This document shows positions 2,581 to 50,912 of a stretch of DNA of 64,000 nt, piece after piece (position 1 is the first letter of the stretch; each line of letters opens with the position of its first letter). The stretch is from NCBI GenBank assembly GCA_947625885.1, contig CANQQA010000011.1, positions 3,442-67,441 on the forward strand. The letters are read 5' to 3'. Source of the DNA: an uncultured Bacteroidales bacterium (GTDB lineage Bacteria; Bacteroidota; Bacteroidia; Bacteroidales; UBA11471). Made by a program: the position numbers and the translations under genes. The notes under the pieces are model-generated. The model saw only the letters and a program-made list of their open reading frames with translations, was not told the origin of the DNA and ran no database searches.

Positions 2581-2588
2581 GCTATAAA

Positions 2589-2635: not shown

Positions 2636-2861
2636 CGAAATCAAAAAGCGTTGATAATCAATAAAACCTCAAAGATTGTCAGCGCTTTTTTAATGTTATA
2701 TATTTTCATTTTTAGACGCACAAATAATACATTTTAATACCATTTACTACATTTGCACACCAATGCGCGTGCAAGATATGTGCAAGGAAAATGATAACAA
2801 TATCGCTTTATTTAGATACCAGAGGAAACAAAAAAGATACCCCGTTAAAAATTGCCCCTCT

Positions 2862-32807: not shown

Positions 32808-33257
32808 ATGAGCAGAAAAGATACGCATGTAAAACACGAAGGCATCATCGACCGCATCGAAGGTGCGACCGTTTATGTACGGATTACGCAACACTCGGCG
32901 TGCAGCGGGTGTCATGTGCAATCCATGTGTACCGTCTCCGACCGTTCCGAAAAAATCATCGAAACGACATATCATGCTGCCGCGGATTTGCGTAGCGGAC
33001 AACACGTGTGGATAATAGGCAGCGAAGCCATGAGCAGCGAAGCGTTGCGGTTGGCATTCCTCTACCCTTTTATCGTATTGTGCTGCGCGTTAGGCATAGC
33101 GACCTTGTGCACCGACAACGAAATAACCGCCGGTGTCGTATCGCTCTGCTCGCTCGTACCCTATTATTTCGTCTTGTACCTGTTTCGGCGAAAAATACGC
33201 AAAGATTTGGTATTTACAGTAGAACCTCTAACAGAAGAAACCCAAAACCTATCATAA
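32808..33257 (+). CDS. RseC/SoxR-reducing-system family protein (Rnf-associated)
   Basis: HEGIIDRIEGATVYVRITQHSACSGCHVQSMC is followed by two TM helices, and the gene sits directly upstream of rnfB. Confidence 0.7.
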   Translation: MSRKDTHVKHEGIIDRIEGATVYVRITQHSACSGCHVQSMCTVSDRSEKIIETTYHAAADLRSGQHVWIIGSEAMSSEALRLAFLYPFIVLCCALGIATLCTDNEITAGVVSLCSLVPYYFVLYLFRRKIRKDLVFTVEPLTEETQNLS

Positions 33258-33268
33258 ATTAAAAAGAA

Positions 33269-34174: not shown

Positions 34175-34207
34175 TTCAATAGTAATCAACAGTAAAAACA
34201 AACAGAT

Positions 34208-35542: not shown

Positions 35543-35563
35543 TAATCTCTGAAAACTATCACT

Positions 35564-36520
35564 ATGAGTCAAAATTTTATTGTATCGCCTTCACCGCACG
35601 TACATAGCGGCAATTCGGTATCGAAGTGTATGTACGGCGTGTTGATAGCCCTGATACCGGCATTTCTCGTGTCGCTTTACTGCTTCGGCATCGGAGCCTT
35701 GGTGGTAACGCTCACGTCGGTATTGGCGTGTGTACTTTTTGAATACCTTATTCAGAAATACCTCTTGAAAGTAAAACCGTCGATATGCGACGGTTCCGCG
35801 ATTCTTACCGGCGTACTGCTGGCATTCAACGTACCTTCGAACCTGCCGATATGGATTATCATTATCGGTGCGCTCGTTGCCATAGGTATCGGTAAAATGA
35901 CTTTCGGCGGATTGGGAAACAACATTTTCAACCCCGCCCTCGTAGGTCGCGTATTCCTGTTGATTTCGTTCCCCGTGCAAATGACTACGTGGCCTGTTCC
36001 CGACCCGTTGAGTATGAATTACCTCGATGCCGAAACGGCTGCCACGCCGTTGGGACTGATGAAACAGGGTCTGCCCGTCGAAGCCATGACCACCGATATG
36101 CTGCTGGGTAACATCGGCGGAAGTCTCGGCGAAATCAGTGCCATAGCCTTGTTGATAGGATTCGCCTACATGTTGATACGCAGAATCATCACGTGGCATA
36201 TTCCCGTTTCCATTCTGGTTACGGCTTTCGTATTCTCGTTCCTCGTCAATGGATTCGATGCCGAAGGCGCCCTTCAACAACTGTTGCTCGGCGGCATGAT
36301 GCTCGGCGCCATTTTCATGGCGACCGACTATGTAACGTCGCCCATGACTCCGCGCGGCATGATTATCTACGGCATAGGCATCGGCTTGCTGACTATCATC
36401 ATTCGCCGCTACGGCGCATATCCCGAAGGCATGTCGTTCGCGATTCTCATCATGAACGCCGCAACGCCTCTTATCAACAAATATGTGAAACCTAAACGAT
36501 TCGGGGAGGTGAAAAAATAA
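35564..36520 (+). CDS. rnfD: Rnf complex subunit D
   Basis: It is a polytopic NqrB/RnfD-like protein with an FMN-attachment-type motif around ...MATDYVTSP. Confidence 0.85.
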   Translation: MSQNFIVSPSPHVHSGNSVSKCMYGVLIALIPAFLVSLYCFGIGALVVTLTSVLACVLFEYLIQKYLLKVKPSICDGSAILTGVLLAFNVPSNLPIWIIIIGALVAIGIGKMTFGGLGNNIFNPALVGRVFLLISFPVQMTTWPVPDPLSMNYLDAETAATPLGLMKQGLPVEAMTTDMLLGNIGGSLGEISAIALLIGFAYMLIRRIITWHIPVSILVTAFVFSFLVNGFDAEGALQQLLLGGMMLGAIFMATDYVTSPMTPRGMIIYGIGIGLLTIIIRRYGAYPEGMSFAILIMNAATPLINKYVKPKRFGEVKK

Positions 36521-37146
36521 TGGCTAAACAATCATCATTCGGAAATATGCTCATCGTGCTTACGGTCATCACCGTACTGGTGGGCGCATTGTTGGGCTAC
36601 GTATACGGCATCACCGCCGAGCCTATCGCACAGGCGAAGAAACTGAAACAGGAAAATGCCGTGAAAGACGTAACGCCCGCATTCGACAACTCTCCCATCG
36701 ACGAACAATATACCGTTACGGTCAATGGTATGGAGTTGAAAGTTTTCCCCGCTACGAAAGAGGGTGAAAAAGTAGGCGCCGCCGTAGAGAGCAAGACGAA
36801 AAACGGCTTCGGCGGAGAAGTGGTCATCATGGTCGGATTCGAAGCCGACGGCACGATACGCAACTACCGCGTACTCTCCCACGCCGAAACGCCCGGTCTC
36901 GGTTCCAAAATGGAAGAATGGTTCCGCACCGAAAGAGGCTCGCAAAGCGTTTTGGGCAAACACCCTGCAAAAGATAATCTGACGGTAAAGAAAGACGGCG
37001 GAAGCGTCGATGCCATCACGGCTGCCACAATCAGTTCGCGGGCATTCCTCGACGTCATAGCCAATGCCTATACCGCTTATACGAACAATAACTGCGACGG
37101 CGCTACCGGCGCTACGCAACAGGAAAAGGAGGCAGACCATGAATAA
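36520..37146 (+). CDS. rnfG: Rnf complex subunit G
   Basis: It has an FMN-binding domain with ...SVDAITAATISSRA. Its start overlaps the rnfD stop. Confidence 0.85.
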   Translation: MAKQSSFGNMLIVLTVITVLVGALLGYVYGITAEPIAQAKKLKQENAVKDVTPAFDNSPIDEQYTVTVNGMELKVFPATKEGEKVGAAVESKTKNGFGGEVVIMVGFEADGTIRNYRVLSHAETPGLGSKMEEWFRTERGSQSVLGKHPAKDNLTVKKDGGSVDAITAATISSRAFLDVIANAYTAYTNNNCDGATGATQQEKEADHE

Positions 37147-37723
37147 GTTGAAAATCATTCTGAACGGTATCATCACCGAAAACCCGACATTCGTATTGCT
37201 GTTGGGTATGTGCCCCACGCTGGGTACGACTTCTTCGGCTATCAACGGTCTGGGCATGGGACTGGCAACGATGTTCGTGCTCATCTGCTCCAACGCCGTG
37301 ATAGCCCTTATCAAAAACCTGATTCCCGACAAAGTGCGCATACCGTCGTTCATCGTCGTCATCGCCGCATTCGTAACCATATTGCAAATGTGCATGGAAG
37401 CCTACGTGCCGGCTTTGTACGAAAGTCTCGGTCTGTTCATTCCCCTCATCGTGGTGAACTGCATCGTGCTGGGTCGTGCCGAATCGTTCGCTGCCAAACA
37501 CAACGCATTCGACTCGATGCTCGACGGCGTGGGCTGCGGACTCGGATTCACGATAGCCCTCACCCTGCTGGGCAGCGTGCGCGAACTGTTGGGCACCGGC
37601 AAGATATTCAATACCGCCATTTTCCCCGAACACTTCGGTGCATTGGTATTCGTGCTGGCTCCGGGTGCATTCATCGCGCTGGGCTACCTTATCGTCATTG
37701 TCAATAAACTTAAAACCAAATAA
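37139..37723 (+). CDS. rnfE: Rnf complex subunit E
   Basis: [29 protein letters not shown]. The internal ATG overlaps the rnfG end by 8 nt. Confidence 0.85.
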
Positions 37724-37728
37724 GCGAT

Positions 37729-38310
37729 ATGATTACCTACATTTCCATATTTATCACCGCCATATTCGTCAATAACATCGTTTTGGCGCAATTCTTGGGT
37801 ATCTGTCCTTTCTTGGGAGTATCCAAAAAAGTAAGCACGGCTACCGGCATGGGTGCCGCCGTCGCTTTCGTCATGACAATCGCCACGATATGCACCTATC
37901 TGTTGCAGAAATACCTGCTCGATGCGTTCGGCATCGGATTCATGCAGACGATAGTGTTCATTCTCGTCATCGCCGCCCTTGTGCAGATGGTGGAAATCAT
38001 ACTCAAAAAAGTATCTCCTCCCCTCTATCAGGCACTCGGCGTATTCCTCCCGCTCATCACCACGAACTGCGCCATTCTGGGTGTAGCCATTCTGGTAATC
38101 CAAAAAGAATATACGCTGCTCGAATCGGTGGTATTCGCCATTTCCACCGCTCTCGGCTTCATGCTCGCCATGGTCATCTTCGCCGGTATCCGCGAACAGT
38201 TGAGCACGACCCGCATACCGAAAGCCCTGCAAGGAATGCCTATCGCCCTTATCGTAGCCGGTCTGCTGGCTCTCGCCTTCATGGGCTTCGCCGGCATAAA
38301 AGTGGGATAA
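37729..38310 (+). CDS. rnfA: Rnf complex subunit A
   Basis: [28 protein letters not shown]. Confidence 0.9.
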
Positions 38311-38335
38311 CGAACACGACGCGATTACACAAAAA

Positions 38336-38366
38336 AGGTTGCGAAATTCATTCGCAACCTTTTTTG
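38336..38366 (+). terminator. Rho-independent terminator of the rnf operon
   Basis: aggttgcgaa-attca-ttcgcaacct followed by tttttg. Confidence 0.75.
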
Positions 38367-38394
38367 TTGGTGGTTTAGCTTATATGCAAAAAAA

Positions 38395-38417
38395 ATCCCG
38401 AAATAGTCTTTCGGGAT
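38395..38417 (-). terminator. Terminator hairpin downstream of tRNA-Asp
   Basis: atcccgaaa-tagtc-tttcgggat, with a T-run on the minus strand. Confidence 0.6.
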
Positions 38418-38422
38418 TTTTG

Positions 38423-38496
38423 CGGTGCGGACGGGACTCGAACCCGCGACCCCATGCGTGACAGGCATGTATTCTAACCAGCTGAACTACCGCACC
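38423..38496 (-). tRNA. tRNA-Asp (anticodon GTC)
   Basis: The reverse complement folds as GGTGCGG-TA-GTTC-AGCTGGTTA-GAAT-A-CATGC-CTGTCAC-GCATG-GGGTC-GCGGG-TTCGAGT-CCCGT-CCGCACC-G (74 nt). CCA is not encoded. Confidence 0.95.
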
Positions 38497-38632
38497 TCAG
38501 GGTCTGCAACTCCTCGCGCTGCTTCGGAATTGCGGCACAAAAGTAATTGTTTTTTTCACATTCTGCAAACGGACGGCAAAAATTTTCTGAAATTATTTTC
38601 GGACAATCTTGCCCGATTCTCAAAAATATCCC

Positions 38633-38640
38633 TACCTTTG
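38633..38640 (+). promoter_or_regulatory. -7 promoter box (TAccTTTG) driving the riboswitch leader
   Basis: It matches the TAnnTTTG consensus immediately upstream of the riboswitch. Confidence 0.5.
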
Positions 38641-38644
38641 TCGC

Positions 38645-38812
38645 CGTATTGGTTTGAAGTACCCGTTCGGGGTATGGAAATTAAAAGGGAATCGGGTGAA
38701 AATCCCGAACAGTCCCGCTGCTGTGAGTTCTATCTCTGCGCAAGCCATCTATTGCCACTGATTATTTCGGGAAGGCTGCTTGCCGCAAGAACAAGTCAGA
38801 AGACCTGCCATA
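38645..38812 (+). promoter_or_regulatory. Cobalamin (B12) riboswitch
   Basis: The conserved core is aaaagggaatcgggtgaaaatcccgaacagtcccgctgctgtgag. The B12 box is attgccactg, and the 3' element is agtcagaagacctgcc. It lies in the 5' leader of a TonB-dependent receptor gene. Confidence 0.85.
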
Positions 38813-38922
38813 CAAAACCTCATTCAACAGCCTTCGAGGAAAGCGCTTTTGAGCATCGACGCGACAAATCAAGGATTTACTTTTCGCCGACAAATCAAGG
38901 TTTTCCCCGAAGCCCTGTATGA

Positions 38923-40959
38923 ATGTTTACATCAAAAACATTCGACATGAAAAAGGCGGCAGTCATCTGTCTGTTGATTACGGGAAACATTCTGTCGTGC
39001 ACGGGTTTACGTGCACAAGGGAAACTCGACTCGCTCCAACATCTGCACGAAGTGGGCATTTCTGCGCGCCGCCAAGTCGAAATCATCGCGCCGCAACAGC
39101 TCGACGGGAAAGAGTTGGAACGGCTCAACAGCCATTCCGTCGCCGATGCCATACGCTATTTTTCCGGTGTGCAACTGAAAGATTACGGCGGCATCGGCGG
39201 ATTGAAAACGGTGAATATACGCGGCATGGGCACCAATCATACGGGTGTCTTCTACGACGGCATACAGCTGGGAAACGCCCAGAACGGGCAAATCGACTTA
39301 GGAAAATTCTCGCTCGACAATATGGAGGAAATCGCCCTCTACAACGGGCAGAAAAGTGAAATACTGCAACCGGCGCGCGACTACGGCACATCGGGGTCGG
39401 TGTATCTGAAAAGCCGTCGCCCGAAATTCAAGGAAGACGAAAAATACCATTTGCAGGCAACGATGAAATGCGGGTCGTTCGGACTTGCCAATCCGTCGAT
39501 ACTCTGGGAGCAAAAAATAACCCGTCGCACGAGCAGCCTGTTCAACGCCGAATATACTTATGCCACAGGTAAATACAAATTCCGCTACCGTCGCACGCAA
39601 CCCGACGGCTCGGTGGCTTACGACACGACGGCGACGCGGGAAAACGGCGATATAAAGGCGTTGCGGCTCGAAGGGGGATTCTTCGGCACCGCCGAACGGG
39701 GCGAGTGGAACGCCAAACTCTATTACTACGACTCCGAGCGGGGCATTCCGGGTCCTATATTAAATAATGTATGGCGACACGGCGAACGGCAATGGGATCG
39801 CGATTTTTTTGCACAAGGGCATTACCGGAGCAACTTCGGGAAACGGTACCGCCTGCTCATCAACGGCAAATACGCCTACGACTACACGGAATATCTCCGC
39901 GACGACTATCGGGAGTTATACATACACAACCATTACCGCCAGCACGAGTGTTACCTGTCTGCAGCCCAGCAGATAACGCTCTTTTCGTGGTGGGACGTTT
40001 CGCTATCGACCGATTTTCAATGGAACACCCTGAATGCCGATTTGCGGGACTTCCCCTTCCCCACCCGTTACACCGAAATGGCGGCAATCGCCACGACGAT
40101 GCAATGGGAACGGGTGCAGATACAGGGCAGCCTGCTGGGAACATTCATACAGGAGAGTGTGCGGAACAAACAAAAAGCGTCGGCGGCTTCGCCAAACAAA
40201 AACGAGCTGTCGCCGGCGGCTTTCGTATCGTTCCGACCGTTGGAACATCACGATTTGCAACTGCGGGCATTCTGTAAAAAATCGTTCCGTATGCCCACTT
40301 TCAACGACCTCTACTACACCGACATCGGCAACAAATACCTGAAACCGGAATACACCGTGCAATACGACGGCGGATTTCTTTTCCGGAAAAACCGGACGCA
40401 CGGAGCTTTCCGCCATTTCGAGCTGCAAGGCGACGGCTATTACAACGTGGTTACCAACAAAATCGTAGCCTATCCTACGGGACAGCAGTTCCGCTGGACG
40501 ATGCTCAATCTGGGGCGCGTGGAAATACGCGGCTGCGACCTCGCGGCGCAAGCGGGCGTGCTGTGGGGCAAAGTGGGTCTGAACGCACGGGTGTGCTATA
40601 CCTTCCAGCGGGCACAGGATTGCACCGACCCTGCCGACCGCTATTACAAAGACCAAATTCCCTACATACCGCGTCATAGCGGCTCGGCGCTGCTGAGCGC
40701 CGAATGGGAAGGGTGGAATTTCAATTACAGTTTCATCTACACGGGCGAACGGTACAGCTCGTCGGAAAACAGCCGCCTCACCCGCCTGCAACCGTGGTAC
40801 ACGAGCGATTTTTCGGCAAACTACTCTTTTTCGGTGAAAAAAGTGAAATGCCGCGCCACCGGCGAGATAAACAACCTTTTCAACCAGCATTACGACGTGG
40901 TGGCCAACTACCCCATGCCGGGCATCAACTTCAAGGTCATCTTACGCATCGAGATATGA
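38923..40959 (+). CDS. btuB: TonB-dependent outer-membrane receptor, BtuB-like (corrinoid)
   Basis: It has a plug domain (...SVADAIRYFSGVQLKDYGGIGGLKTVNIRGMG), a beta-barrel and a terminal aromatic-type end, and it follows a B12 riboswitch. The true start may be the ATG at 38947 (MKKAAVICLL...). Confidence 0.8.
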   Translation: MFTSKTFDMKKAAVICLLITGNILSCTGLRAQGKLDSLQHLHEVGISARRQVEIIAPQQLDGKELERLNSHSVADAIRYFSGVQLKDYGGIGGLKTVNIRGMGTNHTGVFYDGIQLGNAQNGQIDLGKFSLDNMEEIALYNGQKSEILQPARDYGTSGSVYLKSRRPKFKEDEKYHLQATMKCGSFGLANPSILWEQKITRRTSSLFNAEYTYATGKYKFRYRRTQPDGSVAYDTTATRENGDIKALRLEGGFFGTAERGEWNAKLYYYDSERGIPGPILNNVWRHGERQWDRDFFAQGHYRSNFGKRYRLLINGKYAYDYTEYLRDDYRELYIHNHYRQHECYLSAAQQITLFSWWDVSLSTDFQWNTLNADLRDFPFPTRYTEMAAIATTMQWERVQIQGSLLGTFIQESVRNKQKASAASPNKNELSPAAFVSFRPLEHHDLQLRAFCKKSFRMPTFNDLYYTDIGNKYLKPEYTVQYDGGFLFRKNRTHGAFRHFELQGDGYYNVVTNKIVAYPTGQQFRWTMLNLGRVEIRGCDLAAQAGVLWGKVGLNARVCYTFQRAQDCTDPADRYYKDQIPYIPRHSGSALLSAEWEGWNFNYSFIYTGERYSSSENSRLTRLQPWYTSDFSANYSFSVKKVKCRATGEINNLFNQHYDVVANYPMPGINFKVILRIEI

Positions 40960-42113
40960 AACGGATATTCTTTCCACTTCTACTGCTTTGTCTGTCGGCA
41001 ATAAGCTGCCGGCACGATGAATTGATACTCTACTCCGACACCTACGAAACGACCACTCCGCAATACACCTCCGTCGCCGGCTTCTACCTGCTCAATGAAG
41101 GAAACATGGGAACGAACAGTTCGACCCTCGACTATTTCGACGCAACGACCGGTGAATATCATAAAAATATTTATGCCGAAACCAATCCTACGGTCATCAA
41201 GGAGTTGGGCGACGTAGGCAACGACCTGCAAATTTACGGCAGCCGGCTCTATGCCGTCATCAACTGTTCGCACAAAGTGGAAGTGATGCGCGCCGCCGAT
41301 GCCTCGTATATCGGGAAAATAGACCTGCCGAACTGCCGGTACATCAGATTCCATGAGGGATATGCCTACGTCAGCTCCTATGTGGCACCCGTTCGGATAG
41401 ACCCGCACGCGCCGAAAGGGTGCGTATTCAAAATAGACACGGCGACCCTGCAAGTGGTCGATACCGTTACCGTCGGCTACCAGCCCGAAGAAATGGAAAT
41501 ACGTTTCGGAAAACTTTACGTCGCCAATTCCGGCGGCTACCGCGTACCCGACTACGACAACACGGTGTCGGTAATCGACCTCGCCACGTTTCGGGAAATA
41601 AAGAAAATCGAGGTGGCGATAAACCTGCACCGCATCAAAGGCGACCGCTACGGCTATCTGTACGTCAGCTCTCGGGGCGACTATTACGACACCCATTCCA
41701 AACTGTACGTCATCGACGCCCGCACCGACAGGCTCGTCGATTCGCTCGACATAGCAGTGAGCAATATGTGCATCGACGGCGATTCGGCATACGTGTACAG
41801 CACCGAGTGGAACTGGACAACGGCACAAAACACCGTTACCTACGGCATCATCGACCTGAAAGAGCGCCGCATCGTCAATCGCAGCTTCATCACCGACGGC
41901 ACCGATGCCGAAATCAAAATTCCCTACGGCATCGCCGTCAATCCCATAACCAAAGAAATCTACGTTACCGATGCGAAAAACTATGTCGTATCGGGCACCC
42001 TGTATTGCTTTTCCCCCGAAGGAAAATGTCTTTGGAAAGTGCCGGCAGGAAACATTCCCGCCCACTTCGCCTTCAAAGGCGAATACCGGATAGAACATAC
42101 CTACACCAACTAA
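40956..42113 (+). CDS. Surface lipoprotein, beta-propeller (YncE/DUF5074-like); BtuG-like by position
   Basis: Its ATG overlaps the btuB stop (ATGA). The lipobox is LLLLCLSAISC followed by RHDE, which resembles a lipoprotein export signal. FYLLNEGNMGTNSSTLDYFD... and repeated propeller-like blades are present. Confidence 0.65.
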   Translation: MKRIFFPLLLLCLSAISCRHDELILYSDTYETTTPQYTSVAGFYLLNEGNMGTNSSTLDYFDATTGEYHKNIYAETNPTVIKELGDVGNDLQIYGSRLYAVINCSHKVEVMRAADASYIGKIDLPNCRYIRFHEGYAYVSSYVAPVRIDPHAPKGCVFKIDTATLQVVDTVTVGYQPEEMEIRFGKLYVANSGGYRVPDYDNTVSVIDLATFREIKKIEVAINLHRIKGDRYGYLYVSSRGDYYDTHSKLYVIDARTDRLVDSLDIAVSNMCIDGDSAYVYSTEWNWTTAQNTVTYGIIDLKERRIVNRSFITDGTDAEIKIPYGIAVNPITKEIYVTDAKNYVVSGTLYCFSPEGKCLWKVPAGNIPAHFAFKGEYRIEHTYTN

Positions 42114-42125
42114 AAAAAATTGGAT

Positions 42126-43313
42126 ATGAAAAAAGCCATTCTATCGTTTCTCTGCCTCATGGGCAGCGGCACGTTCTTTTCTCCGGCAACGGCGCAATCG
42201 CCGTACATCGCAAAAGTAGTCGAATTCAGACCCGCACCCGGACAATTCGTCAACGAACTGCCCGAATACGAAAGCGGAGATACGGAAGAGACCATGCGAG
42301 CCAAAGCCGAAGAATACATCGCCCACAATAATAAAAACATGATTTCGCTCGGCGGGTACGGCGGATATGTCGTCGTGGCATTCGACCACACCATCGTCGA
42401 TGTACCCGGCGTATGCGATTTCAAAATATCGGGCAACGCCTTTTATGCCGATGCCAATCCCCGTCCCGATGCCCCGCTCGGAGGGAGCTGCGAACCGGGT
42501 ATCGTCATGGTGGCTTACGACCGTAACCGCAACGGACAGCCCGACGATGACGAATGGTACGAAATAGCCGGCAGCGAATACGAGAAAAAAGAGACGCTGA
42601 AAAACTATTCCATCACCTATCACCGCCCCGCGCCCGACCACGTGGCAACCCCTCACCCCGACAACAAATTTCTGAACGACACCACCTACATACGTTGGAA
42701 CGACAATCGCGGAATAACGAGCTATATGCCGCGCAACACGTTCCACGCGCAAAGCTATTATCCGGAATGGATAAAAGACGACTCCCTGATGTTCACCGGA
42801 ACGCGGCTTGCCGACAACGGCATCGACGAGTCGGGCAACGGCACTTATTTCGTGTTGTATGCCTACGGATTCGGGTACGCCGACAATCGCCCCAACGCCG
42901 ATACGCTGTCGCATATCGACATCGGCTGGGCGGTCGATAGCGAGGGCAACCCCGCACATCTGCCCGGCGCCGACTTCATAAAGGTATATACGGGTGTCAA
43001 TCAATACAACGGCTGGCTGGGCGAATGTTCCACCGAAATATTGGGCATGGAAGATTTGCACATCGATGCCGTGATGTCCGACATTCACGAAAACAAACAG
43101 CACGTTTGCAATCTCTATCCCAATCCCGTAAAAACACACCTCATCGTAGAATCGAATGAAGCGTGCCTTATCGAAATACTGTCACTTGCCGGAAACCGGA
43201 TTTTGCAGAAAAAAATCGAAGTCGGAACCAACCGCATCGACATGAGCGGCTGCCCCGTCGGCATATACTTAGCGAAAATCGGAAACAAATCATATAAGAT
43301 CATTAAAAACTAA
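42126..43313 (+). CDS. Secreted protein of unknown function with T9SS type-A C-terminal sorting domain
   Basis: It has the signal peptide ...FFSPATAQ and the conserved N-terminus SPYIAKVVEFRPAPGQFVNE. The C-terminus is NLYPNPVKTHLIVES...IEILSLAGNRIL...GIYLAKIGNKSYKIIKN. Confidence 0.65.
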   Translation: MKKAILSFLCLMGSGTFFSPATAQSPYIAKVVEFRPAPGQFVNELPEYESGDTEETMRAKAEEYIAHNNKNMISLGGYGGYVVVAFDHTIVDVPGVCDFKISGNAFYADANPRPDAPLGGSCEPGIVMVAYDRNRNGQPDDDEWYEIAGSEYEKKETLKNYSITYHRPAPDHVATPHPDNKFLNDTTYIRWNDNRGITSYMPRNTFHAQSYYPEWIKDDSLMFTGTRLADNGIDESGNGTYFVLYAYGFGYADNRPNADTLSHIDIGWAVDSEGNPAHLPGADFIKVYTGVNQYNGWLGECSTEILGMEDLHIDAVMSDIHENKQHVCNLYPNPVKTHLIVESNEACLIEILSLAGNRILQKKIEVGTNRIDMSGCPVGIYLAKIGNKSYKIIKN

Positions 43314-43325
43314 CCATTCTCCGTT

Positions 43326-46300
43326 ATGAAAAAGTTATTCATCTTTTTAGGGATTCTCCTGCTGGCAGCAGGAAATTCGGCAGCACAAATGCGGGTGCAA
43401 GGCATTCCGTATTTCAATCCGAAAATGAAAACGTTCTCGGCAGAACAACCCCAAACGATAGCGGCAACCGGTGAAGATTTCACCTTCGACGACATCGACT
43501 TCTGGATAGGCGAAGGCGAAAACCGCGCGGCTCTTGTCGTACAATGGACTGACGACCGCGAAACGACAGCCCTTGCATGGGGTTACCGCTGGGACGGCGA
43601 ATCATACGGCGACGATATGGTGAAAGCCATTGCCGAAGCCGACCCTCGTTTTTACGTCCTTTTCGGAGGACCTACGGGTTACGGTCTTACCATCGGCGGC
43701 ATGGGCTACGACCTCGACAACGACGGCGACATCGCCCTGTATTTGGATAACGAAGAATATCCCCTTCCCAACGGGTACTACATCACCGGAAACATGAATT
43801 ACGATTACGATTCATGGTCGGCACGCGACGCCGACGACTTGTGGGGAAGCGGCTGGTATCAGGCTTTTTGGTCTTACTGGGTAAAAGACGATGCGTCATC
43901 GGAATTTTCATTTGCCCAAGTAGGTGCATCGACACGCAAATTGAAAGACGGCTCGTGGGACGGCTGGAATTTCGAGCCGGGCATGACGTTATATCCGTGG
44001 AAACCGTTTGCTCCCGCACCGGAGCCTGCCACGTCGTACAACGAAGGTATATTGTTCCTCGACAAGGAAAATACACTCTCGTTCCTCACAAAAAAAGGAA
44101 ATTTTGAATACGACGTATTCCGCTCTATCAACGGCGAAGCCATAGACGGACGCATACAAACCCTGTTCAATTTCGGAGGCTATACTTATATCCTCACCGA
44201 CAAACGATTGATAACCGCTACCGAAAAAGGATTGGAAAAGAGCGATCAGACGGAAACGCAAGGCTTCACCTCCATTGCCGGCATATCGCCCGATAAACTC
44301 TATCTTTACGGCAACAAGGGCGTGGGCATATACGACCTCGAAAACAAAAAAATTTCAGGCACGTTCACGTTGAACAGCGACGCACCGGTAAGGCAAATCG
44401 TCGTTGCAAAAGGCAGCGCCTACATTCTGCAAAACAACCGATTGAGCATCGTCGATACCAAAAGCGACCGTTTGATTACATCGTTCAATGCTTCTTACGA
44501 AACATTGATACAGGATTGTAACGGGTGCATCTGGGGAATTTACGGGTCGTCCCTCGACTGCATCGCCGGCGAACAAACCGGCAAAACGGTCGCTTTTTCT
44601 TCTATGTCGCACTACACGGGCAAGGGACAAATCGTCGCCCACGCCAAGAAAAACTACTTCTGGTGGATTTCGGGACAGCAGATTATCCGCTTCGATACCG
44701 ATAATGCCGCAACAGCCGGCTACCCGTTCTTCTCTTGCGAAGAAGAAGGCATCGTACCGGTAAACCTCTGCCTCTACTATAAAAAAGAGGCATTGGCTAT
44801 CCTTGCCGAAGATACGCTCAACCGCAAAGCCGTCGTGTATCTGCTCGATGTCGAAAGCGGCGACCTGCTCGACCGTTACGAATCGGAAGCACCGGCAATA
44901 CTGGGCATCACAGCCGATATAGCGCCCAAATTGAGCGTCGAAGGCAGCCTGACACTCGAAACGAACAGCGATCGCACCACACTCCCGTTCACGGCTGCAG
45001 ACGACGATAATGCCGCCATACTCTTCAACCTCACGGCAACGACAAGTGAAAATGCTCCGTTCAGGATTGAACTCGGAGACAGCCTGACCGTTACGCCGAT
45101 AGCCGACAAAGACGGCAGCGGAAGCATTACCCTGCAACTCGTGTCCAACGGACGGAAAGTCGAAAAACAGATCGGCATCCGGGTGAAACGCTCACTTCAA
45201 AATTTCGCATTTACCGCCGATACGGTATCACTGAACCCCTGCGACACCCTTGCTCTCCGATTTACTTTCCTGCCGGAAAACGCCACCGACAAGCATATTT
45301 CCTTACGTTCCTCCAACAGTTATTCCGGAGTTGAAATAACCGAAGACGAACGCATCGTGGGTTTGAGAAACGGCAGCTACAAACTATACGCCACCGCCGA
45401 TGACAATCCGGAATTGAAAGATACGTTAATCGTCGAGGTATCGGCAGTAGCGCTGGATTCCGTCGTCTGTCCGCGCGACACCATCACCGTACTGGCAGGC
45501 GCCAAAGATACGTTCCTACTCCGATACTACCCGCAAAATGCGACAAGCAAATCGACCACATATAAAATCGCCGATACAGATATTGCGACAGTTACAACAA
45601 ATACATTCTCTTCGTGGGACAGTTACAGCCGCGCCGTCATAACAGGAAAAAAGGCAGACACGACTCTGCTGCAAGCCGTCGTAAAAGAAACAAAAGACAC
45701 ACTGCGTATTCCTGTCGTCGTACTGGCAAATCCGGTAACGGGTATGACGATAGACCACGATACGGTAGATTTAATCGTACCGAAAACACAACGCCTCGAA
45801 GTATCGGTAACGCCGAACAACGCCGCCAACAAATCGGCGATATGGACAACCTCCGATGAAAGTGTCGCCACCCTATCGACAAAATCGGCATCGTCATACT
45901 GCACGGTAACAGCGAAAAGCGCAGGTACGGCAATCATCAGAGCAACTTCGGTCGATGGCGGATTCGTCGATTCCTGCCTTGTGCGTGTAACCTACATTCC
46001 GCTCGACAGTTTTACCATAGCTATTCCCGACCAACCCGAACTGTATGAAAAAGGTACCAGCATCTATTCTTTCACCAAAACATTCTACCCCGAAGACGCC
46101 AGCGACAAAACGCTGAGGTGGCATTCGTCGGACGATAATGTCGCCACGGTAAGTACAACCGGTACTATCAAAATACAAGGAAAAGGCAACGCGGTAATCA
46201 CCGCCATATCGAATGCCAATCCTGCCTTGCGCGACAGCCTGATAATTGCAGCCGTCGATACGATATACCCGACCGCCTGCATACTCGACAAGCACGAATC

Positions 46301-47273
46301 GTACCTGCAACCCGGACGTACAGAATATATGTCTTACACGCTCGAACCCGGCAGCGTAAACTGGCGAAAACAAACATTCCTCTACGAATCGGCAGCCGAC
46401 AGCATCGCCACCGTAAGCACCTACGGATATGTAAAAGGAGAAGCCATCGGCGATGTGTGGGTACGCATCACCTGTATGCCGATAGGTCTGGTCGATTCGT
46501 GTCTCTACCACATCGCTCCGTTAATTACCGAAATCGGCATACAAGCCGATACCACCCGCCTTGTCGTAGGCGATACCTTGCAGTTGCAAGCTAAAGTCTA
46601 TCCCGAAAGGGGCAACCCCGTTGTTACGTGGCTGAGCCACGACAAAGCAACCGCCGCCGTCGATGACAACGGCAGTGTCGTCGCCCTGAAAGCCGGCACG
46701 GTCGAAATATCGGCAACGGCAACCGACGGCTCGGGTATTATCGGCAAAATAGAGCTAACCATTGAAAACCAACAGGCACAAGAATTGCACCTCTCTGCCG
46801 AAGCAGATTCGTTGAAAGTCGGAGAAAAAATGCCGCTCTTGCTCGAAACGCTTCCGGCAAACACGACCAACAAACGGGTATGGTGGAGCAGCAGCAATCC
46901 CGATATCGCCCTCGTGAGCAGCACGGGTACGGTCGAAGGGTTGGCGGAAGGCACGGTTACCATCACCGCCATCAACCGCGACAATATGCTCGCCCGCGAT
47001 GAGATGGCTATACGCATCATCGCCGTCGAAACCGACCCTGATGTCGATGCTTTGACAAGCAGCGACAAATCCGACAGGAAAATCTACATCGCCCAAAACA
47101 CGCTGCATATCGAAAATGCCGCAGGCGAAACGGTGATGCTGTACAACAGCAACGGAATCGTCCTGTTGTCGGCAATCTGCCATACGACGCACGAGACATT
47201 CGGTTTGAACGTCCCTGCCGGGCTGTATATCGTCAAAGTCGGAAACTTCCGAAGCAAACTTTCCATCAAATAA
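43326..47273 (+). CDS. 1315-aa surface protein: N-terminal globular domain, propeller-like region, about 7 Big_2 (Ig-like) repeats and a T9SS C-terminal sorting domain
   Basis: The signal peptide is MKKLFIFLGILLLAAGNSAAQ. Seven repeats have the pattern L..(V/I)...D.(V/L).L..G....L....P.NA(T/S)(D/N)K...W.SS(D/N)..(V/I)A(T/L)V(S/T) between about 45190 and 47030. The C-terminus is ...TVMLYNSNGIVL...AGLYIVKVGNFRSKLSIK. Confidence 0.7.
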   Translation: MKKLFIFLGILLLAAGNSAAQMRVQGIPYFNPKMKTFSAEQPQTIAATGEDFTFDDIDFWIGEGENRAALVVQWTDDRETTALAWGYRWDGESYGDDMVKAIAEADPRFYVLFGGPTGYGLTIGGMGYDLDNDGDIALYLDNEEYPLPNGYYITGNMNYDYDSWSARDADDLWGSGWYQAFWSYWVKDDASSEFSFAQVGASTRKLKDGSWDGWNFEPGMTLYPWKPFAPAPEPATSYNEGILFLDKENTLSFLTKKGNFEYDVFRSINGEAIDGRIQTLFNFGGYTYILTDKRLITATEKGLEKSDQTETQGFTSIAGISPDKLYLYGNKGVGIYDLENKKISGTFTLNSDAPVRQIVVAKGSAYILQNNRLSIVDTKSDRLITSFNASYETLIQDCNGCIWGIYGSSLDCIAGEQTGKTVAFSSMSHYTGKGQIVAHAKKNYFWWISGQQIIRFDTDNAATAGYPFFSCEEEGIVPVNLCLYYKKEALAILAEDTLNRKAVVYLLDVESGDLLDRYESEAPAILGITADIAPKLSVEGSLTLETNSDRTTLPFTAADDDNAAILFNLTATTSENAPFRIELGDSLTVTPIADKDGSGSITLQLVSNGRKVEKQIGIRVKRSLQNFAFTADTVSLNPCDTLALRFTFLPENATDKHISLRSSNSYSGVEITEDERIVGLRNGSYKLYATADDNPELKDTLIVEVSAVALDSVVCPRDTITVLAGAKDTFLLRYYPQNATSKSTTYKIADTDIATVTTNTFSSWDSYSRAVITGKKADTTLLQAVVKETKDTLRIPVVVLANPVTGMTIDHDTVDLIVPKTQRLEVSVTPNNAANKSAIWTTSDESVATLSTKSASSYCTVTAKSAGTAIIRATSVDGGFVDSCLVRVTYIPLDSFTIAIPDQPELYEKGTSIYSFTKTFYPEDASDKTLRWHSSDDNVATVSTTGTIKIQGKGNAVITAISNANPALRDSLIIAAVDTIYPTACILDKHESYLQPGRTEYMSYTLEPGSVNWRKQTFLYESAADSIATVSTYGYVKGEAIGDVWVRITCMPIGLVDSCLYHIAPLITEIGIQADTTRLVVGDTLQLQAKVYPERGNPVVTWLSHDKATAAVDDNGSVVALKAGTVEISATATDGSGIIGKIELTIENQQAQELHLSAEADSLKVGEKMPLLLETLPANTTNKRVWWSSSNPDIALVSSTGTVEGLAEGTVTITAINRDNMLARDEMAIRIIAVETDPDVDALTSSDKSDRKIYIAQNTLHIENAAGETVMLYNSNGIVLLSAICHTTHETFGLNVPAGLYIVKVGNFRSKLSIK

Positions 47274-47284
47274 GTCTTTCTTGC

Positions 47285-47323
47285 GGGGAGAGTGTGCATG
47301 AGCACATTCTCTCCCCGATTTTT
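47285..47323 (+). terminator. Strong hairpin plus T-run between the 1315-aa gene and the next ORF (intra-locus terminator or attenuator)
   Basis: ggggagagtgtgc-atga-gcaca(tt)ctctcccc followed by gattttt. Confidence 0.6.
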
Positions 47324-47337
47324 CAAAAAACGGAGCT

Positions 47338-49038
47338 ATGAAAAAAATCTTTCCTCTCCTCCTCTGCGGCATCTGTCTGTACAGCGGAAATGCCCGCTCC
47401 CAAAACACGGACGACACACCGACCGATAGCCGGAACGACTATACGACCGGCGTTTTCGTACTGAACGAAGACTGGTTCGGACACCAGAACAGTACAATCA
47501 ACTATTTCACCGATTCCTGCACATGGGTATATCGCGTCTTTCAAAAAGAGAATCCGGGACACGAATTGGGGTGTACTTCCCAGTTCGGAACCATCTATGA
47601 CGGACGTATGTACATCGTATCGAAACAGGAGAAAGACGGCGGCGCGACAATTACCGGCAGCCGGCTGGCAGTGTGCGACGCCCGAACGATGAAACTGGAA
47701 AAAGAGTTCGCCGACATCGCACCCGAAAACGGAAACAGCGCATCGGCAGACGGGCGCACCTTTCTCGGTATCGACCGGCACACCGGCTACCTCGGTACGA
47801 GTAACGGCATCTACCTGTTCGATATCGACAAGATGAGCATCGGCGCGATGATAGAAAACACGGGAAACGCCAGCGGCAGCCTCTACGACGACCAGATAGG
47901 CATGATGACACGTGTCGGGAGGTACGCTTTCGCCGTGCATCAGGCAAAAGGCTTGCTGGTTATCGACACGGAAACGCATACACTGGAAACCATCATCGAA
48001 GGAAAATACAACTCTGTCATTCCCGCCCGTGACGGAAACCTGTGGCTCAGCAGCAACGACAACCTCGTATGCCTCGACCCCTACACGCTGAAAACCGAAC
48101 AGCACCCCGTTCCCGTGTCACTGCCGGAATCGTGGTATGCGTGGACAGCCGACCCGTTTTGTGCCTCCTATCAGGAGAACAAAATCTATTGGGCTTATTC
48201 CCAAACAAACGATTGGTGGGGACAGGACGTCATCTATTGTTACGACATCGACAACGAATCGCGTTCCGAAATTTTCGATTTCGGAACGTACGACGATGGA
48301 AGTTGGACGTTATATCATGCCGGATTCCGCATACACCCTGTAACCGACGATATATATGCCATGATATATCGCTCGAACACAAGCCGGAAATACCGTATGC
48401 TTCGCCTTTCAAAAAACGGCGGAGAAACGTGGGAAGTCGCCGGCGAATACGACTTGGAAAGCAATTACTGGTTTCCGGCGTTGGTCATTTTTCCCGACAC
48501 TGCCGCACCGGTCGTCTCCGATGAATTTCCCGACAAAATCGCCTTCGACTCCGAACAGCATCGTTTCTCGCTCTACTTGGGCGACAAAGTGTCCGACGAC
48601 GACAATCTTGCCTGCACAATCGTGAAATCGGTGATTACGACAAATAAAGCCGTGCTCGATGCCCGCATCGAAAACGATTCGCTCATCGCAGAGCCGGTCG
48701 GTAACGGCACCGCGACCCTGACAGTCGTATTCAACTCCAACGGCAAAACCGTAGAGAAAGAAATACTCGTAACGGTTTCGGGACTTTCAAGCAACCGAGA
48801 AACTGCCATGTCCGAAAAAACATACCGCATCTACCCCAACCCCGCCCAACGGTATTTTACGATAAATACGGAAGAAAGCGTGACGGTCGACATTTTCAGC
48901 CTTGACGGGCAGCGGCTGCTCTCCTCGCCGGCGGAAAAAGGAGAGCCGGTATCGGTGGAAACACTGTCGGCTGGGCTGTACATGGTGCGCATCTCCACAC
49001 CGTCGGGCAGCGGATATGCCCCGCTTCTCAAACAATGA
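47338..49038 (+). CDS. Secreted DUF5074-like beta-propeller protein with Ig-like domain and T9SS type-A C-terminal sorting domain
   Basis: It has a signal peptide, then GVFVLNEDWFGHQNSTINYF..., a paralogous motif to the two lipoproteins. The C-terminus is YRIYPNPAQRYFTINTEESVTVDIFSLDGQRLL...GLYMVRISTPSG. Confidence 0.65.
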   Translation: MKKIFPLLLCGICLYSGNARSQNTDDTPTDSRNDYTTGVFVLNEDWFGHQNSTINYFTDSCTWVYRVFQKENPGHELGCTSQFGTIYDGRMYIVSKQEKDGGATITGSRLAVCDARTMKLEKEFADIAPENGNSASADGRTFLGIDRHTGYLGTSNGIYLFDIDKMSIGAMIENTGNASGSLYDDQIGMMTRVGRYAFAVHQAKGLLVIDTETHTLETIIEGKYNSVIPARDGNLWLSSNDNLVCLDPYTLKTEQHPVPVSLPESWYAWTADPFCASYQENKIYWAYSQTNDWWGQDVIYCYDIDNESRSEIFDFGTYDDGSWTLYHAGFRIHPVTDDIYAMIYRSNTSRKYRMLRLSKNGGETWEVAGEYDLESNYWFPALVIFPDTAAPVVSDEFPDKIAFDSEQHRFSLYLGDKVSDDDNLACTIVKSVITTNKAVLDARIENDSLIAEPVGNGTATLTVVFNSNGKTVEKEILVTVSGLSSNRETAMSEKTYRIYPNPAQRYFTINTEESVTVDIFSLDGQRLLSSPAEKGEPVSVETLSAGLYMVRISTPSGSGYAPLLKQ

Positions 49039-49078
49039 AACGACTGCAAAGACAAAAAGCTCGCAACTGAAAAAATCG

Positions 49079-49086
49079 TATCTTTG
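49079..49086 (+). promoter_or_regulatory. -7 promoter box (TAtcTTTG) for the second propeller lipoprotein
   Basis: It lies 58 nt upstream of the ATG at 49144. Confidence 0.4.
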
Positions 49087-49143
49087 CACCCGTTTTGTAT
49101 TAAAAAATAAACGTTCCCATAAACACCTAAAAACTATCTACGT

Positions 49144-50217
49144 ATGAAAAAAAGTCTTTTATGCACATGGTTATGCGCGGCAGCTCTCTTGAGCGGCTGC
49201 AACAACGAAGACGAAAAACTGCTTCTGCCGGACACTCAAACGACGACACCCGGCAACGGTTCGTTCTATCTGCTCAACGAAGGCAACTACGGTCAAAACA
49301 ATGCGACACTCGACTTCTTCGACGCCGAAGACGGAACGTATTATACCAATATCTATCCGTCGCGTAATCCCGAAGTCGCCATGGAGCTGGGCGGTACGGG
49401 CACGGATCTGAAAATCTACGAAAACCGCCTGTATGCCGTAATGAACGGTTCGCACAAGGTCGAAATCATGACCGCCGACAGCGCCAAACACATTGCCGGC
49501 GTCGATGTGCCCAACTGCCGTTACATCTGCTTCGAGGGCGGCTACGCGTATGTAAGTTCATACACTGCGCAAGTTTATAAAATAGACATTGCCGCCGCCA
49601 AAGTGGTCGATAGCGTAAGCGTAGGTCGCGAGCCGGAAGAAATGGCTGTCGTCGGCGGAAAACTCTACGTCGCCAATTCCGGCGGCTACAGCTACCTTTC
49701 GGGAGAATACGACAGCACGGTATCGGTAATCGATCTCGCCACGTTTACGGAATCGAAAAAAATAGAGGTGGCTATCAACCTGCATCACCTCAAAGCCGAC
49801 GGCAAAGGCAATCTCTATGTTACCTCGCGCGGAAATTATGGAGATATTCCGTCGAATCTCTACGTCATCGACCTTGCTACCGAAACGGTGAAAGCGCTGA
49901 ACATCGCCGCCTCCGACATCGGTATGGACGACGACATCGCCTACGTCTACTCATCGGAATGGAGCGATGTAACAGGCAAAACTACCTACACGAGCCACAC
50001 CATCGACTTGAACAGCCAAGCCGTGAGCGAAGGGCATTTCATTCCCGAAGGCGTAGCGCCGTACAGCCTAACGGTGAATCCGATAACGAAAAAGTTGGTG
50101 GTAACCGATGCCGGCGACTATACAACGTCGGGAAAGGTATATTTCATCACGCCCGACGGGGAAATAGAAAATACGGTATTTGCCGGAGTGAGTCCGGGAC
50201 ACGTCGCATTCAAATAA
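49144..50217 (+). CDS. Surface lipoprotein, beta-propeller (YncE/DUF5074-like); paralog of 40956-42113
   Basis: The lipobox is AALLSGC followed by NNEDEK, an acidic export-signal-like stretch. SFYLLNEGNYGQNNATLDFFD..., KLYVANSGGY and TVSVIDLATF...KKIEVAINLH are shared with the first paralog. Confidence 0.65.
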   Translation: MKKSLLCTWLCAAALLSGCNNEDEKLLLPDTQTTTPGNGSFYLLNEGNYGQNNATLDFFDAEDGTYYTNIYPSRNPEVAMELGGTGTDLKIYENRLYAVMNGSHKVEIMTADSAKHIAGVDVPNCRYICFEGGYAYVSSYTAQVYKIDIAAAKVVDSVSVGREPEEMAVVGGKLYVANSGGYSYLSGEYDSTVSVIDLATFTESKKIEVAINLHHLKADGKGNLYVTSRGNYGDIPSNLYVIDLATETVKALNIAASDIGMDDDIAYVYSSEWSDVTGKTTYTSHTIDLNSQAVSEGHFIPEGVAPYSLTVNPITKKLVVTDAGDYTTSGKVYFITPDGEIENTVFAGVSPGHVAFK

Positions 50218-50232
50218 CAGGATAAAAGCAAG

Positions 50233-50277
50233 CGGAAAGGAAAGCATTTTTCGGCATCGGAAAAACTTTTCTTTCCG
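50233..50277. terminator. Long hairpin between convergent genes
   Basis: cggaaaggaaag-(21-nt loop)-cttttctttccg. Confidence 0.5.
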
Positions 50278-50309
50278 ACTTTTTCCGAACGAAAACGATG
50301 CGCTCTGCG

Positions 50310-50708
50310 TTAGAGAAAAGAGGTTTCGCCGAGCTGTCGCAACCCGATGCGCATATAATCCCGCACCATATCGCGGGGACGCAATATGCGGTCGTCCCAC
50401 ACCACGACGTCGATGTCGAGCGGAACAAGTCCGAGCGTCTTGCATTCGGGCGTGCGACCGAAATCGGTTTCCATGCCTTTGAAAAAGCGTTCCAGCGTTT
50501 CGCATTCGGCATCGGTCGAAAACAGGGCTACGGCATTGCAATAATCGGGTGCCCCCGCACAACTGCCCTCCGCAGGCGTCGTGTATATCGACGAAGCACG
50601 GAAATCGGAGAACCGTGCCGCCAATATGGCGCACGCTCTTGCCACCGTCGCTTCCCGGTCGGCGGCATTGGAGCCGATGCCCACGATAACCCGATGCAAA
50701 ACCGCCAT
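50310..50708 (-). CDS. folK: 2-amino-4-hydroxy-6-hydroxymethyldihydropteridine diphosphokinase (HPPK)
   Basis: VIVGIGSN...REATVARA...SSIYTTPAEG...GRTPE...LDIDVV. I chose the internal start MAVLHRV. Confidence 0.75.
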   Translation of the reverse strand: MAVLHRVIVGIGSNAADREATVARACAILAARFSDFRASSIYTTPAEGSCAGAPDYCNAVALFSTDAECETLERFFKGMETDFGRTPECKTLGLVPLDIDVVVWDDRILRPRDMVRDYMRIGLRQLGETSFL

Positions 50709-50814
50709 ATCGAAAAAAGTTTGTTTTTCGTTGCAAAAATAAACTTTTCCCGACAAACGGCAGAAAGGTTTTTCAAAACGATTGAAATCTTTTTGCGGAT
50801 AACGATAAAAGCGC

Positions 50815-50822
50815 TACCTTTG
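50815..50822 (+). promoter_or_regulatory. -7 promoter box (TAccTTTG)
   Basis: It lies 91 nt upstream of the ATG at 50913. Confidence 0.4.
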
Positions 50823-50912
50823 CGCCGAAAAAAATCAAGGTAAAAAAGAAATTCCCGCCTACCTGTTTTTTCGGACGGGAGAAAACAAACCATTTTTCAA
50901 AACAAAACAGAG

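Follow-up and report, generated by a model that had tools for sequence, protein, structure and literature searches.

A cobalamin-riboswitch-led corrinoid uptake locus of a Bacteroidales bacterium with capture proteins predicted to be exported by the type IX secretion system

In a 64-kb stretch of DNA from an uncultured Bacteroidales bacterium (hereafter the window), a cobalamin riboswitch heads six genes, termed p1-p6, on the forward (+) strand. We consider this locus to be probably a riboswitch-controlled corrinoid uptake operon, in which a BtuB-BtuG core is combined with capture proteins that would be exported by the type IX secretion system (T9SS) and that are built from BtuH modules, BtuK1-like modules and a module here called p4N, i.e., the N-terminal domain of p4. 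It represents a widespread and apparently undescribed version of an uptake system already known, and one of its binding domains may be new. The closest known system consists of Btu operon 1 of Bacteroides thetaiotaomicron (BT1486-BT1491), which encodes BtuK1, BtuK2, BtuH1, BtuB1, BtuGH and BtuJ1, and of the 'extracellular cobamide relay', which is described throughout as lipoprotein-based (PMC10404256, PMC8941943, PMC12751083, PMC13616437).

The riboswitch, the transporter and the lipoprotein lids

The main features of the locus, in window coordinates with amino acid (aa) positions in brackets, are as follows.

38633-38640, +: TACCTTTG, Bacteroidota -7 promoter box (TAnnTTTG; here TAccTTTG), read directly in the sequence
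38632-38826, +: cobalamin riboswitch aptamer RF00174, matched by cmscan over the full model (1-189)
38923-40959, +: btuB (p1), BtuB1-type TonB-dependent corrinoid transporter (Pfam Plug and beta-barrel; phmmer)
40956-42113, +: btuG (p2), surface lipoprotein lid, DUF5074 seven-bladed propeller (PF16819 match)
42126-43313, +: p3, BtuH-type domain (aa 22-314, 42189-43067) followed by a T9SS type-A sorting domain (aa 330-395, 43113-43310)
43326-47273, +: p4, multidomain protein of 1315 aa (Pfam, AlphaFold2 (AF2), Foldseek and hidden Markov models (HMMs) of the tail)
47338-49038, +: p5, BtuK-like DUF5074 propeller (aa 37-386, 47446-48495), immunoglobulin (Ig)-like spacer and T9SS type-A sorting domain (aa 498-566, 48829-49035)
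49144-50217, +: p6, second BtuG-type propeller lipoprotein, without a partner transporter (PF16819 match)

An earlier note on this DNA, made by a model from the sequence letters, had placed a cobalamin riboswitch with a TAccTTTG promoter box at the head of the locus and had proposed a cmscan check, which was run and bore out the assignment. The aptamer scored 91.4 bits (E 2.4e-21; gathering score 31.5), reached 185.5 bits under a custom covariance model, contains the B12 box GCCACTG at 38754-38760 and is the one RF00174 match in the whole window. The promoter box TACCTTTG was likewise found where the earlier note had read it, at the 5' edge of the riboswitch; of 86 riboswitch hits in related loci, 61 have TAnnTTTG at the same place (model position 1), compared with 0 of 86 control stretches. 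The riboswitch lies 97-121 nucleotides (nt) upstream of btuB, depending on whether the start at 38923 or that at 38947 is used; the latter, from which public gene calls read a protein of 670 aa (MKKAAV...), is likely the true one. Ligand-dependent control of the downstream genes by the riboswitch is predicted from its sequence. An expression platform was sought by folding the leader, whose minimum-free-energy structure does not stand out (z -1.98). Between the aptamer and the btuB start, the leader contains two copies of a 12-nt direct repeat, GACAAATCAAGG (38863-38874 and 38889-38900).

The transporter p1 aligned over its full length (residues 15-667) with 8BLW_A, 'Vitamin B12 transporter BtuB1', in a phmmer search (E 5.4e-129), and is by homology a BtuB1 ortholog. 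Its stop overlaps the start of p2 in an ATGA at 40956-40959. As the earlier note had supposed from its position, the propeller lipoprotein directly behind btuB is BtuG-like: p2 matches the G-domain of BtuG1 (8PTD/8BLW_B; E 2e-46) and carries a lipobox ending in AISC, followed by RHDE with acidic residues after the Cys. Among the contacts of BtuG2, Glu55 and Asn107 are kept, Gln93 is replaced by Asn and Phe58 by Met, and Ser131 is uncertain, the underlying alignment to 8BMY being fragmentary. A longer reading of p2 from 40704 was ruled out; the added stretch is without a signal peptide, and 40956 is the start chosen by gene callers.

A second propeller lipoprotein had been said to close the locus, which agrees with our results. 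The protein p6 is a paralog of p2 (53% identical over 369 aa, E 7e-119) with a lipobox LSGC followed by NNEDE, and we set the end of the locus at 50217, beyond which folK, on the minus strand, is the first genuine gene. An open reading frame (ORF) at 50298-50843 was rejected as a gene, since public gene calls place folK (HPPK) at this site on the minus strand. The order and spacing of the ORFs were also as described before, with the ATGA overlap and gaps of 12 nt before p3, 12 nt before p4 and 64 nt before p5, to which a gap of 105 nt before p6 is added.

The lack of btuFCD, to which the earlier note had pointed, was confirmed insofar as the window ORFs scanned include no gene of the FecCD or BtuF type, and the sole ATP-binding cassette ATPase among them is part of an OEP-HlyD-MacB (MacAB-type) efflux set. 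However, this lack is ordinary, because Btu operons 1 and 3 of B. thetaiotaomicron are also without btuFCD (PMC12751083).

Predicted corrinoid-binding modules and their export signals

In p3, the N-terminal domain matches the BtuH domain (H-domain) of BtuG1 in 8BLW_B (E 5.9e-71) and BtuH2 in 7BIZ (E 6e-41). The 7BIZ chain was set on the published numbering by adding 100 to the chain index, as fixed by twelve residue identities. The ligand and metal residues reported for BtuH2, i.e., Gln333, Phe334, Asn399, Phe401, Glu406, Tyr475, His476, Tyr510, Asp522, Trp577, Ser582 and Glu584 (PMC13616437), correspond to Q40, F41, N104, F106, E123, F206, H207, Y241, D253, W297, S302 and E304 of p3, respectively. 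Thus, 12 of 12 corrin-contact and two-metal-site residues are kept, 11 being identical and one, Tyr475, being replaced by Phe. The signal peptide of p3 is of the signal peptidase I (SPI) type, with predicted cleavage between ATA and QS, and has no lipobox Cys. Because p3 has a T9SS sorting domain in place of a lipobox, we describe it as a BtuH-domain protein and not as a BtuH lipoprotein.

The propeller of p5 begins at aa 37, right behind an SPI-type signal peptide (cleavage between ARS and QN), and matches the full PF16819 profile (1.3e-107). Among solved structures, BtuK1 with cyanocobalamin (BtuK1-CNCbl, 9S6C) is closest to it (E 1.5e-11 over 349 aa). In BtuK1 a loop contacts B12, and this loop is truncated in BtuK2, which does not bind B12 (PMC13616437). 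The B12 loop, NE(G/D)WFGH, is present in p5 as NEDWFGH, with E44, W46 and H49 corresponding to Glu23, Trp25 and His28 of BtuK1, and Thr, Gln and Lys contacts are kept as well, as T80, Q82 and K96 of p5. BtuK proteins are defined by an N-terminal PKD domain and a lipoprotein anchor, neither of which p5 has; it carries an Ig-like spacer and, at its C-terminus, the sorting domain. By sequence, p3 and p5 are therefore members of the BtuH and BtuK domain families and not of the corresponding lipoprotein families. Comparison of the downstream proteins with BtuG and BtuH structures, which the earlier note had advised, identified p3 as a BtuH-domain protein and p5 as BtuK1-like with its B12 loop. Both are homologs of proven B12 binders rather than generic surface proteins, and their own corrinoid binding is predicted.

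The long protein p4 is composed of the following parts.

N-terminus, +: SPI-type signal peptide, cleavage between SAA and QM, without lipobox
aa 30-225, 43413-44000, +: p4N, transcobalamin-beta/DUF4430-like domain of ~200 aa
aa 244-463, 44055-44714, +: divergent DUF5074 propeller (Pfam, 8e-18)
between propeller and tail, +: Ig-like spacer and Big_2 repeats in 5 stretches (Pfam)
aa 1241-1315, 47046-47270, +: sorting-domain-like tail

The account of p4 in the earlier note had missed the transcobalamin-beta-like p4N. No Pfam match and no sequence match in the PDB were found for this domain, including a PDB profile search with an alignment. Its AF2 model (mean predicted local distance difference test score 83.6) has as its top Foldseek folds the DUF4430 protein 3U7Z and the beta-domains of transcobalamin, intrinsic factor and haptocorrin, with probabilities of 0.96-1.0 and target-normalised TM-scores of 0.62-0.69. 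The p4N model superposes on these beta-grasp B12-binding domains, and p4N is likewise predicted to be extracellular and is linked to B12 riboswitches; however, it is about twice as long owing to insertions, and the match to DUF4430 (PF14478) is made not by p4N itself but by shorter homologs with two repeats (P0197, P0201 and P0224), which pass PF14478 at 36-48 bits against a cut-off of 23.8. A 2007 paper predicted DUF4430/transcobalamin beta-type domains (SLBB superfamily) to bind B12 outside bacterial cells and described them with Gram-positive anchors and in an ECF/CbiO context (PMC1796856), whereas p4N proteins carry a T9SS C-terminal domain (CTD), a PEP-CTERM tag, a dockerin-like tag or a lipoprotein signal.

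At 50% identity, the p4N family falls into 1157 clusters when E <= 1e-3 is required and into 733 when E <= 1e-10 is. Its architectures include LRR_5 fusions, T9SS-CTD proteins of ~390 aa and, outside Bacteroidota, short PEP-CTERM or dockerin-like proteins; non-Bacteroidota homologs are named in Phycisphaerae, Pirellulales and Desulfobacca. Eight loci were picked by p4N similarity alone, one of which is cut off upstream. In all seven assessable loci, RF00174 lies directly upstream on the same strand; among them are loci of Planctomycetota-type and Desulfobacca genomes and of PEP-CTERM proteins outside Bacteroidota. The fold likeness, the homologs that pass DUF4430 and the riboswitch in 7/7 loci together make p4N a strong candidate for a further corrinoid-binding module, one that has not been named in Btu systems.

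Two p4N-related arrangements were noted. In Desulfobacca acetoxidans (CP002629, 898412-913167; L087:2100-8700), three tandem pairs of a cobalamin riboswitch and, behind it, a c-di-GMP-I riboswitch (2571/2923, 4803/5155 and 8259/8600) each precede unannotated secreted-protein genes, one of which encodes a p4N-domain PEP-CTERM protein; a fourth c-di-GMP-I match lies at 2169. Two Bacteroidales metagenome scaffolds (L093:5715-8340 and L094:5714-8343) carry a stand-alone unit with no transporter nearby, which consists of a B12 riboswitch, a protein with two DUF4430 domains and a T9SS CTD (387-393 aa), a second CTD protein (~330 aa) and a Cys_rich_CWC peptide. The 387-aa form of the DUF4430-CTD protein was found on dozens of contigs.

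As read from the sequence, p3, p4 and p5 all have SPI-type Sec signals in which the predicted +1 residue is Gln, and none of the three has a lipobox. The sorting domains were judged by the curated cut-offs of TIGR04183 (23 bits), PF18962 (27) and DUF6383 (23.7). The tails of p3 (TIGR04183 34.6 bits, PF18962 36.3) and p5 (48.2 and 41.3) exceed the first two cut-offs, lie at the extreme C-terminus and show the PNP motif and a G.Y......K(I/L)(I/V)K ending. In the tail of p4 the PNP motif is absent and a G.Y...K.S.K ending is present. A profile of p4-type tails matched canonical sorting domains in hhalign (99.1%, E 1.5e-18), a comparison that is partly circular because one home-made HMM chose both tail sets. 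The p4 tail is thus a probable sorting domain, and the statement of the earlier note that three proteins all end in type-A T9SS CTDs holds for p3 and p5, whereas for p4, which stays below the curated cut-offs, it is probable only.

Distribution across species and relation to known systems

A search with p3 gave 6093 hits, and among the best 120 most are of ~395 aa with PF18962, showing that the BtuH-plus-CTD architecture is common. NCBI gives such homologs from Barnesiella, Tannerellaceae, Muribaculaceae, Azobacteroides and Dysgonomonas no name other than 'T9SS type A sorting domain-containing protein'. One genome per species was then scanned, which yielded at least 586 species with a BtuH-domain gene, the best 80 loci of which were mapped with the covariance model of the riboswitch and domain searches. 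The scan gave no locus of the window's own species; the best match, from an uncultured Porphyromonadaceae genome, is 69% identical.

The earlier note had asked whether homologs are regularly found behind B12 riboswitches and btuB, and the mapped loci show that they are. A riboswitch lies at most 6 kb upstream on the same strand in 68/80 loci, most others being cut by contig ends, and the order TonB-dependent transporter (TBDT)-BtuG-BtuH is seen in 65/80. Sorting tails occur on BtuH itself in 18/80 loci, on a BtuK-like protein in 41/80, on a p4N protein in 26/80 and on BtuJ in 4/80, so that one or more sorting-tail Btu accessory genes are present in 48 of the 80 loci and, together with a riboswitch, in 42. 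These tails were called by an iterated home-made HMM, which may over-call; of the 107 so called, 85 match TIGR04183, 48 match PF18962 and 24 match DUF6383. The sorting-tail loci belong to Muribaculaceae, Barnesiellaceae, Tannerellaceae, Prevotellaceae, Paludibacteraceae and Dysgonomonadaceae, i.e., prominent gut, rumen and oral Bacteroidales.

Single loci illustrate the variety of the arrangement. A Barnesiella metagenome-assembled genome (JBKTZU010000009; L001:6500-19300) has three cobalamin riboswitches in 13 kb on one strand. The first is followed by a TBDT, BtuG and BtuH-CTD, and the second by a p4N-LRR protein and a p4N-BtuK-CTD protein, behind which the third is located; the second stands directly before the p4N-LRR protein, a p4N-Ig-LRR_5 protein of 1623 aa. 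LRR_5 is the repeat type of BtuL of B. thetaiotaomicron. A sorting domain is likewise present on the BtuJ (DUF4465) homolog of Dysgonomonas sp. 520.

The loci of Flavobacterium, Chitinophaga and Pedobacter in the set contain lipoprotein forms only. In six loci from Dysgonomonas, Pedobacter, Chitinophaga, Chitinophagaceae and Flavobacterium (L016, L022, L023, L054, L061 and L072), the BtuH, BtuK and BtuJ homologs are lipoproteins without sorting tails, and BtuH is often present in 2-3 tandem copies. The type of anchor is therefore lineage-specific. Flavobacterium, Chitinophaga and Pedobacter are generally regarded as T9SS-positive; if so, the presence of a T9SS alone does not set the anchor type.

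The locus of the window shares with operon 1 of B. thetaiotaomicron the cobalamin riboswitch, the BtuB1-type transporter, the BtuG propeller lid, the BtuH domain and the BtuK-type propellers on Ig-like stalks, and btuFCD is found in neither. We note two kinds of difference. In B. thetaiotaomicron the accessory proteins are all lipoproteins with a signal peptidase II signal and a lipoprotein export signal, whereas p3-p5 combine SPI signals with C-terminal sorting domains or, in p4, a sorting-like tail. In addition, the window locus is without BtuJ and without a BtuG-BtuH fusion, whereas it has the additional DUF4430-like p4N and a second stand-alone BtuG paralog.

With the T9SS type-A cargo (TIGR04183/PF18962) of Porphyromonas gingivalis, Tannerella forsythia and Flavobacterium johnsoniae, p3, p5 and probably p4 share the N-terminal Sec signal and the C-terminal sorting domain of ~70 aa. 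Known T9SS cargo consists mainly of proteases, adhesins, glycanases, S-layer proteins and motility proteins. Literature searches found no description of vitamin-binding or riboswitch-controlled T9SS cargo: 'T9SS' and 'type IX' are absent from the Btu and DUF4465 papers checked, and full-text searches that paired T9SS with B12, cobalamin riboswitch, BtuB or cargo, or that addressed DUF5074, DUF4465 or DUF4430, returned no T9SS-sorted B12 binders, paywalled papers being outside their scope. Within these limits, the earlier impression that no B12-regulated set of T9SS cargo had been described was upheld.

Corrinoids including B12 are contested gut nutrients, and the current capture model for Bacteroidota is built on the lipoproteins of one T9SS-negative genus; the same binding modules with T9SS sorting tails in 48 of the 80 species-level loci suggest a different arrangement. 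A wider proposal, about which we remain narrowly doubtful, is that T9SS-positive Bacteroidales at large run a riboswitch-controlled, T9SS-exported capture layer of BtuH, BtuK and BtuJ modules together with p4N as a hitherto unrecognised corrinoid-binding family of transcobalamin-beta type (~1150 clusters at 50% identity), which would be riboswitch-wired in at least three phyla, each with its own sorting tag (T9SS CTD, PEP-CTERM or dockerin-like), so that vitamin scavenging would be a regulated role of the T9SS. If true, the T9SS would gain a function in nutrient acquisition under direct metabolite (riboswitch) control, B12-dependent fitness defects would be expected in T9SS mutants, and hundreds of proteins labelled only by their sorting domain would receive a function. 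In p4N, a candidate new corrinoid-binding family would reach beyond the phylum.

Proposed mechanism, alternative explanations and genomic surroundings

We propose that low cellular cobamide would lead the riboswitch to permit expression from the TAccTTTG promoter, and that Sec would carry the cargo through the inner membrane and the T9SS through the outer one. The sorting domain would then be cut off, and the protein would be attached to anionic lipopolysaccharide (A-LPS) on the cell and on vesicles, or released. [quoted passage not shown]

The earlier note had envisaged a T9SS-anchored corrinoid-scavenging layer that feeds BtuB, a view which homology and comparative genomics support with the reservation that anchoring and release cannot be told apart by sequence. 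T9SS cargo is known to be either A-LPS-anchored or secreted in soluble form. The binders may be real but released after T9SS export, acting in soluble form or on vesicles as 'corrinophores' comparable to the BtuJ-loaded vesicles of B. thetaiotaomicron, an explanation that departs from ours in the last step only and that we consider rather unlikely. The Btu accessory lipoproteins of B. thetaiotaomicron are enriched on B12-delivering vesicles (PMC12751083), and the riboswitch-controlled DUF4430-CTD genes of L093 and L094, with no transporter nearby, would also fit release; however, the long Big_2/Ig stalks of p4 suggest surface display.

Several observations weigh against the reading of the locus as a single riboswitch-controlled operon of T9SS-exported binders. 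Those that bear on transcription involve two further features.

47285-47314, +: 13-bp GC-rich hairpin followed by GATTTTTC, intrinsic-terminator-like, between p4 and p5 (terminator scan)
49079-49086, +: TATCTTTG, promoter-type box (TAtcTTTG), 65 nt upstream of the p6 start

The hairpin after p4 is the strongest + strand match of the terminator scan in the locus, with a fold of -25.5 kcal/mol, and no promoter box stands before p5. The sequence TAnnTTTG occurs only twice on the + strand of 38300-50400, before the riboswitch and before p6, the latter having its own box without a riboswitch. Another terminator-like hairpin lies 3' of p6, at ~50233-50278. A sigma-70 promoter scan was discarded as uninformative (8 sites against 11.1 expected; the wrong promoter type for Bacteroidota). 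Since the hairpin follows p4 and p6 has its own box, riboswitch control of p5 and p6 is not assured. Judged from the sequence, riboswitch control appears well grounded for btuB-btuG-p3-p4, uncertain for p5, where it would depend on read-through, and doubtful for p6; the earlier claim that the riboswitch leads the whole locus is retained for the first four genes and is less certain for p5 and p6.

It is possible, though somewhat doubtful, that the riboswitch unit is btuB-btuG-p3-p4 only and that p5 and p6 are separate units, whose expression is perhaps not B12-responsive. Besides the box before p6 and the single RF00174 match in the window, this would be consistent with L004, a locus from a different species (69% identical), where a hairpin and T-run are kept at the same position with a different sequence. 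However, the missing promoter box before p5 implies that p5 probably depends on read-through, and the BtuK-like sorting-tail genes of relatives lie in the same-strand run or behind a riboswitch of their own. In B. thetaiotaomicron, moreover, B12 regulates Btu operon 4 independently of any riboswitch, and a promoter lies inside operon 1 (PMC12751083).

Further adverse points concern the proteins themselves. Propeller homology alone is no proof of binding, because BtuK2 does not bind B12 (PMC13616437), and the propeller of p4 is without the WFGH loop. The fold match of p4N is marginal by E (3.5e-3 to 0.08) and extends over roughly half of the domain only (query-normalised TM 0.33-0.37). The downstream proteins might be general adhesins or binders of another tetrapyrrole (heme), located next to btuBG by chance, given that Big_2 repeats and beta-propellers are common in adhesins and that B12 binding is lacking in two proteins of B. 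thetaiotaomicron, BtuK2 and BtuL. We regard this as extremely improbable in view of the B12-site residues of p3, kept without exception, the B12 loop of p5, the gene order kept behind B12 riboswitches in dozens of species and the riboswitch linkage of p4N across phyla.

The export signals are open to a similar objection. The p4 tail scored below every curated cut-off (TIGR04183 18.3, PF18962 15.0, DUF6383 23.5), T9SS core genes were sought in the 64-kb window and none was found, and 22 of the 107 tails called in other loci are without TIGR04183 confirmation. Tails of this kind also occur in Bacteroides nordii JCM 12987 (L027:10947-16962), where Btu accessory proteins have sorting-domain-like tails at 26.3 bits for PF18962, just under the cut-off; to our knowledge, Bacteroides is usually regarded as T9SS-negative. 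It could be that the tails are not working T9SS signals, either because the organism has no T9SS or because they are mere Ig-like beta-sandwiches, and the proteins would be periplasmic or take another route. This explanation is very improbable, as the tails of p3 and p5 pass both curated models at the extreme C-terminus with the usual ending, 85 of the 107 related tails match TIGR04183, and NCBI itself names the homologs of Barnesiella, Tannerellaceae, Muribaculaceae and Dysgonomonas as T9SS type A sorting domain proteins.

The surroundings of the locus in the window may be described briefly. A tRNA gene on the other strand (38423-38496) lies upstream of the riboswitch, and a run of same-strand ORFs at 32808-38310 (+) ends just upstream of both. 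The last two genes of this run (~37139-37723 and ~37729-38310) have an Rnf-Nqr domain, and from these two the run may be an Rnf-type electron-transport operon. The only window gene linked to gliding/T9SS biology encodes a GldB-like lipoprotein at 27438-28415 (-), which at 176.8 bits falls just short of the TIGR03514 cut-off of 190. The window begins on its left with a phage-integrase-type gene (Phage_int_SAM_5) that adjoins a RhuM-family gene at 1091-3860 (-), which may be the edge of a mobile element.

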